Positions 33-7,332 of a DNA stretch of 8,558 nt are shown here, piece by piece. The stretch lies in IMG/VR virus record IMGVR_UViG_2690316276_000007; one strand, written 5' to 3'. The notes below the pieces were generated by a model. That model did no database searches. It saw only the letters and a list, made by a program, of their open reading frames with translations, and had not been told where the DNA came from. Position 1 is the stretch's first letter; every line of letters starts with the position of its first letter. This DNA comes from a virus. Taxonomy: Duplodnaviria; Heunggongvirae; Uroviricota; Caudoviricetes. Position numbers and translations under genes: made by a program.

Positions 33-72
33 GAATGATAAGAACGCCGCCAATAACTCTAAACAAACACAA

Positions 73-1533
73 ATGGTGAACGGTACTTTTATCTATTGGT
101 TGAACCTCAACACGCCGGGGAACCTTCGCGGTATCACAACACGCTGTGTTCTGTTAGATGAGGTCAGTAGCTGCGAAATCACTGATGAAGGGAACCCAAT
201 CAAACTGGCAGAAGCACGTACCAGTACCTTCGGTAGTGACTCACTGGTGGTTGTATCTTCCACGCCATTGTATAAAGACGATTTAATCAATGCTGAGTAC
301 AACCTCAGTGATAAACGTAGGTACTTTGTTACTCACACATGCGGTCATGAATATACTTTTGAATGGGAACAAGTAGCGTTTGAATTTAAGCAATTAGAAA
401 ATGGTAGATCCATTCCTGATAGTACTACTACTCGTTTGTTATGCCCTCATTGCAATGAGGGAATAGATGAACATACACGGCATCAGATGGTTGATAATGG
501 TCGATGGATTGCAACTAATCCAGATGGGGAACCGGGTGTAGTAGGGTATCAAATCAGTAGAATGTATTCACCTCTGAATACTATTACTGAAATGGTTTCA
601 AAGTTTGCTGATGCTCTATATAACTTCAATCTTCAAACCTTTTACAATAACGAATTGGGCTTGCCATTCGAAGATGAGTATCAAAAAGAATTAGATATTC
701 TCCAATTAGAATCCCTACGAGAAGATGAATTTAACCTTTATAAAATTCCTGAAAGTACCTTAGCGTTGTGTATTTCAGTTGATCAGCAGGGTGATAGGCT
801 GGAAAGTCTGCTTTTAGGTTTTGATGAAAAGAACATTTATGTACTTGGGCATGAGTTTTTCTACTCCCACGATTGTACGAAGATTGAAGCCCCAGCTTGG
901 AAGGATTTAGATCAGTTTTGCCGTCAGGATTTCAGTACTGTATCAGGTCGCATAGTACCTACACTGGCTGTGTTCATTGATGCAGGGAACGGTAACGCTA
1001 CGGATACTGTGAAAAAATTCACTACACGTTGGAGTAAGTATCATCCGATCAAGGGTAGCAGCTCCACTACTGGTGAACTATTCAAGACCAGTACTCAGGC
1101 GGGGTACAAACTACAGATCCTAAACGTACATGAACAGAAGAACACGATACGCCGCCTCCTGAACCTGATGCTATCCAGTGAGGCAGATAACGCCCCGGTT
1201 AAGCTCCGCTTCAGTAGTACCTTACCATCAGATTTCTTTGAGCAACTTTCAGCAGAGGAGTTAAAACCCGCTGGTGGTAAGTTGGTATGGCGATTAAAGA
1301 AAGGTCAAAGAAGAAATGAGGCTTTAGACCTAATCTGTTATGGAATGATCGCCATAGCATATGCCCAATCAAAATTAGGTACTCAACCATTCAGGAAGTT
1401 ACGCGATTATAAAGCACAGGAAACCACTAAATACGAGATAAATAAAGTAGAAGAACCAAAACCAGAAACAGTACAAAAACCAAAACGGAATAGACGTACT
1501 GGAATGGGATCAAACTGGTTCGGTAAAAGATAA
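73..1533 (+). CDS. Terminase large subunit, lambda gpA family; 5'-truncated remnant lacking the N-terminal ATPase Walker A region (frame open 34..1533)
   Basis: By-eye alignment to lambda gpA: VLLDEV ~ VAGYDE (Walker B region), ITDEGNP ~ IEQEGSP, CPHC cysteine/histidine motif, YSPLNT ~ YSPFTT, C-terminal [15 protein letters not shown] ~ KKRRNEALDCFVY. First Met aligns near lambda residue 150. Stop TAA at 1531-1533. Confidence 0.85.
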
Positions 1534-1544
1534 GGATATCAAAA

Positions 1545-2075
1545 ATGACACTTCTACCAGAAAAGATCTACATGGTATCGAATCCCATGGATCTAACGGT
1601 ATTAGTACCCGCTGCTACTATTCTTGTTATTAGTTTTACATCATCTGGAAAAAGTACCTCATTAGATAATTTAAATGGTAGTACTTCAAAAGAATTTACG
1701 GTTGTATTAGATATGAGTACAGCACAGGAATTACTATTCTGTACTCAAATATCTAATGGTCAAACCAGTACTTTTACTTCTGAAGTCATTAATCCATTAC
1801 TTTATACTTCTGAGTACTCCCAATTAAAACAGATGATCAGTGAAATTGATCAGGTTATAGCTAATAAAATTGCAGGCGGTGCTAATTACTCAATAACAAT
1901 TAATAATAAGACTCTTGTAAGTGAATCATTATCATCGCTTGAATCAATGCGGGAACGCTATGTAAAACGTGCTAATGCTCTATTTGTGAAAATGAATGGC
2001 GGTACTTTCTCTAATGGCGGTAAACCAATCAAGAGTATTACGGTTTTCAGGCCTAAGCCAGGGAGTACACGCTAA
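1545..2075 (+). CDS. Hypothetical protein; C-terminal half weakly gpW-like (head-tail joining), with a roughly 90-aa N-terminal extension
   Basis: ORF in the lambda W position between terminase and portal. AAGGA at 1532-1536 lies 8 nt before the ATG. C-terminal helix-strand-helix pattern resembles lambda gpW. Stop TAA overlaps the portal ATG (TAATG). Confidence 0.5.
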
Positions 2076-5712: not shown

Positions 5713-5713
5713 T

Positions 5714-6106
5714 ATGATGTTAGTACAAAAAGTACGGAATACGATGAAGCAGCTTATCAATGCTACTAAGAATCTGACAGTATCACGTGATGTTGATGTA
5801 TTTGAACAAATTGCTTTTGATTACTCATTAACGAGTTTAAGTTTCAGCAATGAACGCCGGGCAGGTAACTTTGCAATTCAGTATCTGATTTCCCCTAAAC
5901 CAGAATCAGGTAATACAGCCCCATCCATCACTTATGATCAGATTATTAGTACTTTTGATAAAGAGAAAACTTCAGCATTCAGTGATGCAGGTTTAATAAT
6001 GCTTTCGTGTTCTTATGAACAATCCGATATTGTCACAGATCCTATAACTGGCTCGGTTTCCCTATCCTTTACGATAAATATTCAAGTTACGGAAAAGACA
6101 AGATAA
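5714..6106 (+). CDS. Putative tail terminator (weakly lambda gpU-like), 130 aa
   Basis: GAGGA at 5701-5705 lies 8 nt before ATG 5714, 2 nt after the previous stop. Length and weak pattern (R near residue 8, VFE/VFD near residue 30) resemble lambda gpU (131 aa). The ORF-track start at 5636 overlaps the upstream gene and was trimmed. Confidence 0.45.
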   Translation: MMLVQKVRNTMKQLINATKNLTVSRDVDVFEQIAFDYSLTSLSFSNERRAGNFAIQYLISPKPESGNTAPSITYDQIISTFDKEKTSAFSDAGLIMLSCSYEQSDIVTDPITGSVSLSFTINIQVTEKTR

Positions 6107-6123
6107 CTAAAAGGATATAAAGG

Positions 6124-7332
6124 ATGAGTGATATTTTCTCAGGAAGAGAATTATCAGTACAGTATAATGCTGATATTGGTAACAGAACACCACAGGGAGC
6201 AGGCAATGTAGTAATTAAACAGATTAATACTTTTCCAACCTTAACAATAAATTCAGAAGCAAATAATTTTGAAACGTATGATAGTGATTACAGGACAGTA
6301 CTACTATCTGATAAATCAGTAGCACCATTTGATATTGTAGTTAACTACCTACCTGATGATCCTACACATCAATTCTTGGATAATGCCGCTAAGTCTCAGC
6401 AGCTTTTCCAGATCATCATTCAGTACCAGATGAATAAGGATGAAAATACCATTACTTATGCGATGGTGAATGGTTATATCACCTCTTATAAGTTGGACGG
6501 TGATAAAGGTTCAGTAGTAACCAAGGCATACAGTTTTGCCCCACATGATGTGATCGCACGTGCAATGACCATTAACGCACTATCGCCAATCTATCAGGGG
6601 GACTACGGTTTAGGTTCGAACACTACGGATGTACCTCAGTACTCACCATCAGTACCTACGGGTAACAGCTTCATCAAAGTACCATCATCTCAAGCAGGCA
6701 ATCCTGCCGGGGCGGATCTGATGGGAGTAGGGCTTGTAGATGGCACTACTGTAAGTTCTCTTGCGATGACAAAGACGGGTACTCTAAGTATCTATGCAAA
6801 GAACGCTACAACCGCCTGGACACGCATATATACCGCTACACAGATGGACGGGCGATACGTACCCCTTACACGTACCATCAACGGCCATGCACTCACGGCC
6901 AATTTAGTACTGAACAGTGAAGATACAGGTTCAGTACCTGATACACGTACTGTGAATGGTAAGCCTCTAAGTGAGGATGTAGTACTTACCAGTACTGATA
7001 CCGGCTCTGTACCAGATACACGGACAGTTAATGGTCATGTACTCAGTGAAGATATAGTACTGAGTAGTGAAGATACAGGTTCAGTACCTGACACGCGTAC
7101 AGTGAACGGTCATGTACTTAGTGAAAATGTAGTACTGAGTAGTGAAGATACAGGTTCAGTACCTGATACACGTATGGTCAACGGTCATGTACTCAGTGAG
7201 GATGTAGTACTTACCAGTACTGATGTTGGCTTAGGGAAGGTTACAGATGATGCCCAGCTTACGATAGCAGGTAATCTAAGTGATCTGGGGGACGTGGAAG
7301 AAGCACGTATTAACCTTGAAGTGGCACACTGA
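6124..7332 (+). CDS. Major tail tube protein-like (lambda gpV-like N-domain) with C-terminal tandem fibre-like repeats; 3' end interrupted by IS911, which supplies the last codons and the stop
   Basis: AAGGA 8 nt before the ATG. N-terminal ETYDSDY...QLFQIIIQYQ resembles the gpV tube domain (ESYDDSY...ALLAWF). Five 25-aa repeats at 6868-7242. The terminal codons (gaa gtg gca cac tga) lie inside the IS911 left end. Confidence 0.7.
   Translation: MSDIFSGRELSVQYNADIGNRTPQGAGNVVIKQINTFPTLTINSEANNFETYDSDYRTVLLSDKSVAPFDIVVNYLPDDPTHQFLDNAAKSQQLFQIIIQYQMNKDENTITYAMVNGYITSYKLDGDKGSVVTKAYSFAPHDVIARAMTINALSPIYQGDYGLGSNTTDVPQYSPSVPTGNSFIKVPSSQAGNPAGADLMGVGLVDGTTVSSLAMTKTGTLSIYAKNATTAWTRIYTATQMDGRYVPLTRTINGHALTANLVLNSEDTGSVPDTRTVNGKPLSEDVVLTSTDTGSVPDTRTVNGHVLSEDIVLSSEDTGSVPDTRTVNGHVLSENVVLSSEDTGSVPDTRMVNGHVLSEDVVLTSTDVGLGKVTDDAQLTIAGNLSDLGDVEEARINLEVAH
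6868..7242 (+). repeat. Tandem in-frame 75-bp repeats x5 (25-aa units, consensus TRTVNGHVLSEDVVL(S/T)S(E/T)DTGSVPD) inside the tail gene
   Basis: Units start at 6868, 6943, 7018, 7093 and 7168. Protein sequence is conserved with synonymous DNA differences between units; the fifth unit diverges at its 3' end. Confidence 0.9.

Follow-up and report, generated by a model that had tools for sequence, protein, structure and literature searches.

The 8,558-bp window analyzed here (IMG/VR record IMGVR_UViG_2690316276_000007, Caudoviricetes) carries a segment of phage DNA that is densely populated by the palindrome GTAC and by its extended form AGTACT. The window maps to a locus of Shigella sonnei 53G (L046), where an element of the IS3 family with two open reading frames (ORFs) lies directly upstream; at 99.2% identity, this element matches DNA that carries the annotation "IS3-like element IS2 family transposase." At the other end, the part belonging to the insertion sequence (IS) IS911 is 99.8% identical to Escherichia coli DNA annotated as IS911. 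The genes between the two insertions are listed in Table 1. The terminase gene matched the Pfam families GpA_nuclease (1.6e-40) and GpA_ATPase (2.3e-31, covering profile positions 109-247 only), as well as phrog_15. No family match was found in Pfam and PHROG scans for the 130-amino-acid (aa) protein encoded at 5714..6106. The full-length tail gene encodes 808, 858, or 883 aa in other S. sonnei strains, and these lengths fit copy number variation of the 75-bp repeat within it. A protein identical to the capsid protein of the window is encoded in S. sonnei chromosomes, including that of strain 53G (HE616528.1), and at the nucleotide level the segment was matched by none of the 50,697 phage records searched and by none of 5,426 complete E. 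coli genomes. The S. sonnei prophage is riddled with IS elements (L046-L049), and the insertion positions differ between strains. The gpA-type terminase, lambda-family portal, protease-capsid fusion, and major tail protein, together with a recombinase in a complete relative, are those of a lambda-like temperate siphovirus. To judge from these matches, the segment is the lambda-like head/tail module of a defective S. sonnei prophage, cut by IS2 and IS911, in agreement with the original prediction, made from the sequence alone, that it is phage DNA.

Table 1. Features of the window and of related loci. Positions are those of the window unless a locus is named.
Feature	Position	Strand	Remarks
IS2, terminal 32 bp	1..32	.	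Splits the terminase large-subunit gene; left edge of the GTAC-rich segment
GTAC/AGTACT-rich prophage remnant	33..7316	+	7284 bp, 39.4% GC; 0 GCGC, 0 CTAG
Terminase large subunit, lambda gpA type, C-terminal three quarters	34..1533	+	18 GTAC; 5' end lost to IS2
Head-tail joining (gpW-like) protein	1545..2075	+	phrog_5774, connector category, 8.7e-11; 9 GTAC
Portal protein, lambda family	2075..3583	+	Pfam Phage_portal_2, 3.7e-59; 12 GTAC
Prohead protease and major capsid fusion	3531..5375	+	Pfam Peptidase_S78 and Phage_capsid; phrog_617, 9.5e-84; 19 GTAC
Head-tail attachment-like protein	5389..5712	+	Weak Pfam Phage_attach match, 3e-4, under the curated cutoff; 6 GTAC
Conserved 130-aa protein, head/tail connector region	5714..6106	+	Called as a gene in S. 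sonnei records
Major tail protein, Ig-like repeats	6124..7316	+	phrog_158, 6.8e-15, and Ig-like matches; 3' end cut by IS911; 26 GTAC
75-bp tandem array inside the tail gene	6905..7219	+	4.2 copies, 79% matches, ~4 GTAC per unit (Tandem Repeats Finder)
IS911	7316..8558	+	orfA 7353-7691, orfB from 7718; Pfam HTH_Tnp_1 and rve; right edge of the segment
Methyltransferase-like gene, S. sonnei	L057 1-731		
Methyltransferase-like gene	L043 14366-15079		
Methyltransferase-like gene	L028 12599-13357		
Methyltransferase-like gene	L023 19293-19495		Fragments
Large serine recombinase (integrase)	L022 190-2124		
AP2-type DNA-binding protein	L022 2986-3507		
1000-aa protein	L022 3571-6573		

By exact count, positions 33-7316 contain 93 GTAC, 28 AGTACT, and 35 GATC sites, which shows that the manual tallies of the original prediction (about 90, 25 to 30, and about 30, respectively) were accurate. 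Base composition predicts 25.7 GTAC and 2.3 AGTACT sites, and an order-1 Markov model predicts 28.1 and 2.7. Similar values were obtained from 500 dinucleotide-preserving shuffles (28.3±4.9 GTAC, with a maximum of 47, and 2.9±1.6 AGTACT, with a maximum of 9), and shuffling the order of codons gave 39.0±5.6 and 4.3±2.0. GTAC is the second commonest 4-mer in the segment and AGTACT the commonest 6-mer. The part of the window belonging to IS911 (7317-8558) is not GTAC-rich, with 2 sites versus 4.7 expected.

The original prediction had attributed part of the excess to codon bias. We therefore performed 2,000 shuffles of synonymous codons within genes, in which the protein sequence and the codon usage of each gene were kept. 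These gave 54.8±4.8 GTAC and 8.3±2.4 AGTACT sites, and none of them reached the observed numbers (94 GTAC in coding sequences and 28 AGTACT; z = 8.2 for both words). Codon bias therefore explains an approximate doubling of the expectation, from ~26 to ~55, and not the 93 sites observed. The prediction had named two outcomes that would dissolve the excess, and neither occurred: the manual tally was no overestimate, and codon-preserving shuffles fall short. The tandem repeat inflates the count, but only slightly. Without the array, 77 GTAC sites remain versus 24 expected, and without the whole tail gene, 67 GTAC sites versus 21 and 19 AGTACT sites versus 2.0. Forty-two sites are of the form GTA-CNN, 43 are NGT-ACN, and 8 are NNG-TAC, in keeping with the earlier statement that the first two types of codon pair give rise to most sites.

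Queries with the protease-capsid protein of the window led to prophages of Scandinavium lactucae and Buttiauxella and to 19 IMG/VR contigs with 68-100% amino acid identity. Further walks brought the collection to >40 related loci, all of 37-40% GC, with complete contigs of ~36 kb. GTAC was present at 2 to 3 times the expected frequency in every relative examined and AGTACT at 4 to 13 times, except in two sublineages (L077, 1.2-fold; L079, 2.6-fold). In a 217-kb pool of ten diverged relatives (L001, L002, L006, L009-L011, L013-L015, and L017), there were 2072 GTAC sites versus 733 expected from an order-1 model (2.8-fold) and 732 AGTACT sites versus 68 (10.8-fold). In a complete relative of 36,453 bp, rebuilt from L022 and L023, the signature extended along the entire length. 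A maximal-order Markov model predicts 66.8 GTAC sites in the window, a figure that is misleadingly high because GTA and TAC are themselves enriched only through GTAC; outside GTAC, the pooled relatives contain 3230 GTA versus 3160 expected and 3257 TAC versus 2973.

Comparison with the host, which the original prediction had proposed, confirmed that the excess belongs to the phages. A sample of E. coli K-12 had GTAC at 1.20, AGTACT at 0.63, and GATC at 1.35 times expectation, and a 3.75-kb flank of the prophage in S. sonnei contained 7 GTAC sites versus 8 expected. Phage lambda was also unremarkable (GTAC, 1.08-fold; AGTACT, 1.01-fold), as were RB43-like phages (GTAC, ~1.1-fold). Across 200 genomes, GTAC averages 0.71, with a variance of 0.05 (PMC3077040). 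The excess is a heritable family trait, not a local accident, and its carriers are temperate siphoviruses of Enterobacterales, with genomes of ~36 kb and 37-40% GC. One of the two exceptional sublineages, L077 (IMGVR_UViG_3300045988_144930), has 4 AGTACT sites versus ~16 expected from its own half-site frequencies, with GTAC still at 2.3-fold; the pattern in L077 and L079 suggests separate counterselection by an AGTACT-specific enzyme. As a separate observation, Escherichia phage DCP80 (L056, 1-27,726), by its capsid the nearest of the sequenced relatives (only 30% identity), has no GATC site versus 90 expected.

To locate the level at which the excess arises, we compared the number of GTAC sites realized with the number expected from codon usage, wherever the amino acids permit GTAC. 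In the pooled relatives, the ratio was 1.78 for GTA-CNN, 1.72 for NGT-ACN, and 2.46 for NNG-TAC. Ser-Thr pairs were encoded as AGT-ACN in 77% of cases versus 32% expected and Val-Leu pairs as GTA-CTN in 70% versus 29%, and Lys-Tyr was encoded as AAG-TAC 4.4 times more often than expected. Even the order of amino acids was skewed, with 93 Ser-Thr versus 61 Thr-Ser and 80 Val-Leu versus 50 Leu-Val dipeptides. Strictly intergenic DNA, of which 11.7 kb could be pooled over the relatives, contained 81 GTAC sites versus 33-38 expected and 26 AGTACT sites versus 3-4. The enrichment is independent of the reading frame and is present in noncoding DNA.

The bases flanking GTAC were not neutral. The preference was symmetric and roughly multiplicative, with 1194 AGTAC and 1179 GTACT in the pooled relatives, each ~5.3-fold over expectation. 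Among the palindromes of the form NGTACN, GGTACC and CGTACG were eliminated, AGTACT was increased ten-fold, and TGTACA was not enriched (70 versus 90). We considered sites resembling the SlmA box, the consensus of which is GTNAGTACTNAC, and rejected them: G is disfavored at the flank, and GTNAGTACT accounts for only 28 of the 732 AGTACT sites.

The sites are also retained in evolution. We aligned the codons of 6 genes from 11 genomes and compared distant pairs, in which four-fold sites are near saturation. The codon GTA was kept in 88% of cases before C versus 56% before another base, NGT in 92% before AC versus 72% otherwise, and TAC in 77% after G versus 42% otherwise. Gains were biased in the same direction, potential sites changing to GTAC about twice as often as controls (69% versus 35% and 62% versus 38%). 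Core genes were enriched almost without exception. Accessory genes on the opposite strand were enriched weakly or not at all: the gene for a KAP-family nucleoside triphosphatase (NTPase) has 2 GTAC sites versus 3.9 expected, and pooled minus-strand ORFs reach 1.4-2.0-fold. Such poor enrichment of recent imports is what one would expect if a pressure specific to the lineage had acted over a long time. Events were few when the dead S. sonnei branch was compared with a live relative, with 3 losses and 2 gains versus 4 and 2.

The original prediction had remarked that enrichment of a palindrome is the opposite of the usual avoidance of restriction sites, and the same genomes indeed purge most other palindromes that contain G+C. 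GCGC was missing from the 217-kb pool (0 versus 262 expected) as it was from the window (0 versus 10.9). It was absent from the phage part of the relatives (L001-L021 and L058-L083), and the few occurrences counted lie where loci appear to enter host DNA. In E. coli (0.88-fold) and lambda (0.77-fold), GCGC was near normal. Its loss is an elimination specific to the 4-bp word and could reflect restriction pressure specific for GCGC or a phage-encoded GCGC nuclease. Among 6-mers in the pool, there were no GGTACC (26 expected), CGTACG (17), GGATCC (23), or GCATGC (40), CTCGAG was absent, and CTGCAG (1 versus 36), TGGCCA (2 versus 36), and CAGCTG (4 versus 36) were nearly so; altogether, 14 G+C-containing 6-bp palindromes stood at zero. 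Avoidance extended to the 5-mers GGGAC (0.07 of expectation), GACCC (0.11), GGACC/GGTCC (0.12-0.15), and GAGTC (0.21), and the trinucleotides GAC and GTC were at 0.5-0.6.

CTAG behaved differently, varying among close relatives from 65 of 75 expected sites in L010, 57 of 74 in L013, and 52 of 73 in L014 to none in L015 (0 of 73), L017 (0 of 60), and L020 (0 of 51). It is rare in E. coli (0.07-fold) and lambda (0.13-fold), and its depletion in the family presumably tracks the host. An excess of GTAC arising as the mirror of CTAG avoidance was rejected, as relatives that differ in CTAG as widely as 0/73 and 65/75 are alike in their GTAC excess. Conversion of GCGC to GTAC by double deamination was likewise rejected, because the intermediates GTGC (0.88) and GCAC (0.97) are close to expectation and the counts do not match. 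In 20-kb samples of RB43-like phages (L092, L094, L096, L097, L099, and L105, from contigs of 174-180 kb) and RB49-like phages (L084 and L085), AGTACT was absent, with ~2.7 sites expected in each; other phages that share this host range thus seem to avoid AGTACT in the manner of a restriction site.

A methyltransferase specific for GTAC, for which the original prediction had suggested a search, was not found when one complete relative was scanned against Pfam and PHROG. When the pooled ORFs of the family were scanned for motifs, they revealed a protein of 237-252 aa with the sequences GAFFTP, CAGIGRL, and NPPFG (motifs X, I, and IV). Its gene lies at the right end of the relatives; in S. sonnei, the gene is the last of the prophage, adjoining the host genes mipA-gapA and outside this window. 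It is intact in several relatives and replaced or decayed where the KAP-family NTPase sits. Matches of the protein to Pfam and NCBIfam were below threshold, and the best sequence match in the Protein Data Bank had an E value of 0.01. An AlphaFold model (predicted local distance difference test score, 86.7) was nearest to the catalytic domains of M.TaqI, Type I HsdM, and CamA. The motifs and the M.TaqI-like fold suggest that the protein is probably an orphan gamma-class N6-adenine DNA methyltransferase. In both respects it resembles orphan adenine methyltransferases of phages, from which it differs in its length of only ~240 aa and in having no large target recognition domain. The search was thus answered in part: the family encodes an orphan protein resembling adenine DNA methyltransferases, although homologs also occur in phages without the excess.

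One locus bearing a homolog of this gene, in Cronobacter phage GAP32 (358,663 bp), displayed the same triple signature of GTAC up, AGTACT up, and GCGC absent. We therefore sampled distant regions, 115 kb in total, of the Rak2-like jumbo phages GAP32, Serratia phage BF, Klebsiella phage RaK2, and E. coli phage 121Q (L095 and L110-L113). GTAC was at 2.1-2.4-fold in these samples, and AGTACT, at 8-11-fold, was among the top hexamers. GCGC was missing from all 115 kb, GGTACC and CGTACG were all but absent, at zero in most of the regions (RaK2 had 2 GGTACC), and TGTACA showed no enrichment. The ratios for the three frames were 1.40, 1.21, and 2.33, versus 0.8-1.2 in RB43-like and lambda controls. 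Tetranucleotide profiles of the 36-kb family and the Rak2-like phages correlated at r = 0.89, or 0.72 when GTAC, GCGC, and CTAG were left out, versus 0.23-0.35 for RB43-like phages, DCP80, lambda, or E. coli. The signature recurs in the Rak2-like phages in identical detail. These phages also have the homolog of the small methyltransferase, but they are virulent, have genomes of ~350 kb, and encode a T4-type replisome, whereas the 36-kb family is temperate and depends on the host for replication. Depletion of GACA/TGTC and of AGAC/GTCT is a minor feature common to both groups.

Apart from the methyltransferase family, none of the proteins tested was common to the 36-kb family and the Rak2-like phages, and common ancestry of their structural genes was not detectable. 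The complete 36.4-kb relative also encodes a Nu1-like terminase small subunit, a lysozyme, a small GIY-YIG nuclease, the KAP NTPase, and tail genes. Its 1000-aa protein shows faint similarity to primases and helicases, with one weak, partial match among the 50,697 phage records, and neither this protein nor the AP2-type protein of 173 aa matched a solved structure by sequence. A nuclease or other early protein common to the two groups was looked for among these and not found: the AP2-type protein occurs widely, no phage homolog of the 1000-aa protein was seen, and the GIY-YIG nuclease is only weakly T4-like. RaK2 DNA was reported, as data not shown, to be cut only by methylation-insensitive enzymes (PMC3622015). 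GTAC is not mentioned in that paper or in the paper on phage CBB (PMC5259590), and in our literature search, no paper was found to describe an excess of GTAC or AGTACT in phages, the Rak2-like phages included.

We consider the most likely cause of the excess to be selection for symmetric protein-DNA contact at GTAC, to which we assign a probability of about 0.4. The data favor a directional force that acts persistently on the double-stranded word GTAC, in every frame and in intergenic DNA, in both of the unrelated phage groups. Each side of the word independently prefers an A at the 5' flank (a T at the 3' flank on the other strand), and the two preferences multiply to the ten-fold excess of AGTACT. 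The same force holds the synonymous positions that complete GTAC, pulls potential sites toward GTAC, and skews the order of dipeptides. It could be natural selection for a dense supply of GTAC as contact sites of a symmetric, dimeric GTAC-recognizing protein; we infer both selection, in preference to biased repair, and recognition by a protein. The genomes have been stripped of most G+C-containing palindromes of the restriction type, and GTAC must therefore be harmless and useful to them, its usefulness rising with its density. Among the genes of the element, the orphan methyltransferase is the only candidate reader; were it the factor, the GTAC sites would amount to a dense epigenetic mark. 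More tentatively, GTAC, best as AGTACT, might be a positively selected, dense, genome-wide mark, either epigenetic (methylated) or bound by a protein as a "self" or structural signal, that arose or was kept in the 36-kb temperate family and in the Rak2-like jumbo phages, two low-GC groups from Enterobacterales that are unrelated to each other, both with total elimination of GCGC; we regard this wider proposal as possible but somewhat unlikely.

Several observations weigh against selection for such a contact. The pairwise conservation counts are not phylogenetically independent, so that effect sizes outweigh P values, and biases in retention and gain are not enough to tell selection apart from mutation or repair that depends on context. 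The sites are randomly spaced (1 per 105 bp; coefficient of variation, 1.09), with neither helical phasing nor clustering found in the spacing analysis, and there is little sequence information beyond 6 bp; therefore, no architecture points to a particular protein. The depletion of AGTACT in L077, with GTAC kept, makes complete protection of the sites unlikely. The methyltransferase raises difficulties of its own. Its family occurs in 291 sequenced phage records, mostly of the T4 superfamily, and carriers among the RB49-like and RB43-like phages have GTAC at 0.8-1.1-fold and usually no AGTACT. The presence of the gene as a predictor of the excess across phages is thus unsupported. The C-terminal part of the enzyme in the 36-kb family matches that of GAP32 (45%) no better than that of the GTAC-poor RB49-like phages (56%), and members in which the gene has decayed (c48 and L024) keep their GTAC excess. 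We found no report in the published literature of a protein that binds or modifies GTAC in these phages. Divergent specificity could still rescue the link, but on these comparisons, the methyltransferase is a doubtful candidate for the GTAC reader.

Other causes would not require a protein that reads GTAC. The simplest is that the count is a by-product of coding, produced by the use of GTA, AGT, ACT, and GGT codons, by proteins rich in Ser, Thr, and Val, and by the 75-bp repeat. It is true that 85 of the 93 sites fall at NGT-ACN or GTA-CNN junctions, that codon usage by itself lifts the expected count from 26 to 55, and that the repeat array holds ~16 sites. Nevertheless, the synonymous shuffles never exceeded 77 GTAC and 19 AGTACT, the excess persists without the tail gene, in all three frames, and in intergenic DNA, and the preference for the word has in part shaped the codon usage. 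We therefore regard a coding artifact as scarcely credible. It is also very unlikely that the excess is left over from avoidance, in which so many words are forbidden that synonymous choice is squeezed into the permitted ones, mainly GTAC. The purging of most G+C-containing palindromes and many 5-mers, and its combination with GTAC excess in the Rak2-like phages, would fit this explanation. When we forbade 31 strongly avoided words in a sampler that kept the proteins and the codon usage of each gene, however, it returned 53.9±4.8 GTAC sites, as many as without the constraint. In addition, a relative with near-normal CTAG (L010) has the same GTAC excess as its CTAG-free relatives, and the avoided words fall short by a few hundred sites per 217 kb, fewer than the ~1340 GTAC sites in surplus.

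A bias in context-dependent mutation or repair, comparable to very-short-patch repair, could make or protect GTAC with no benefit to the phage. Such a bias would also yield the retention and gain observed at synonymous sites, slow amelioration would leave accessory genes less enriched, and the depletion of CTAG in members resident in E. coli is a host-driven effect of this kind. However, the neighbors of GTAC that differ by one mismatch are not drained as expected (GTAT, 0.98; ATAC, 0.85; GTGC, 0.88; GCAC, 0.97), and neither host DNA nor other phages replicating in the same cells are enriched. The two enriched groups differ in replication machinery, the one having its own T4-type replisome and the other depending on the host, no Vsr-like gene was seen among the family proteins scanned, and the dipeptide skew implies a force that overrides some constraint at the protein level. 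We judge a bias of this kind to be unlikely. Somewhat less probable again is a purely mechanical role, in which densely placed, deformable TA hinges are selected because they make it easier to bend the DNA tightly inside the capsid, or for gyrase or topoisomerase to capture it, and no protein reads the sequence as such. The TA step inside GTAC has been described as more deformable than any other base-pair step and as lying at the center of a gyrase G-segment (PMC13284261). A mechanical role would account for the symmetry of the palindrome, its independence of frame, the random spacing of its sites, and the convergence between unrelated phages. It would not account for TGTACA, which has three pyrimidine-purine steps and is not enriched, or for other flexible TA contexts, which are at or below expectation (CTAG; TATA, 0.65; ATAT, 0.86). 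Most phages that are packaged equally tightly, such as lambda, the RB43-like phages, and DCP80, lack the excess, and the benefit per site would be minute. The remaining probability falls to causes outside those listed here.

Short palindromes in phage genomes are a textbook record of restriction pressure, and depletion is the expected outcome. GTAC is the site of RsaI, Csp6I, and PabI, and AGTACT is the site of ScaI and Eco255I. These genomes provide a strong example of restriction-site avoidance in their loss of GCGC, GGTACC, CGTACG, and many other 6-mers, but the sign is reversed for GTAC (2.8-fold) and AGTACT (10.8-fold), the sites of which are retained in evolution. Over-represented words that are read by proteins include the Dam site GATC in enterobacteria and phage P1, Chi, FtsK-orienting polar sequences (KOPS), and uptake sequences. 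GTAC is like these in being a short word above expectation throughout the genome. It is unlike them in that those words are part of cellular genomes or their reader is known, and their enrichment is usually modest, whereas the carriers here are phages; Chi, KOPS, and uptake sequences are, moreover, oriented and nonpalindromic. Very-short-patch repair in E. coli, which raises CCWGG and lowers CTAG, is a precedent for repair that reshapes tetranucleotide counts, and the absence of CTAG from the window matches the host and lambda. The drained neighbors that it would predict are not seen for GTAC, and the host is not rich in GTAC.

The excess is real, is larger than the original prediction supposed, and is unexplained by known mechanisms; its weakness as a finding is that the mechanism cannot be established from sequence alone. 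A palindrome of 4 to 6 bp is held at 3 to 10 times expectation through deep divergence, in genomes that purge most other G+C-containing palindromes. This points to a reader of GTAC, whether a methyltransferase, a binding protein, or a mechanical requirement, strong enough to bend codon choice and even the order of dipeptides. If selection for GTAC is indeed the cause, this would be, to our knowledge, the first known case of a restriction-type palindrome that is selected for, and not against, in phage genomes, and it would imply an undescribed phage-host interaction in which GTAC is read. Scores of "palindrome avoidance" that are used to infer the restriction systems of hosts can be confounded by positively selected words. 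The triple signature of abundant GTAC, abundant AGTACT, and absent GCGC also offers a cheap marker for these phages and for their remnants in enterobacterial genomes.

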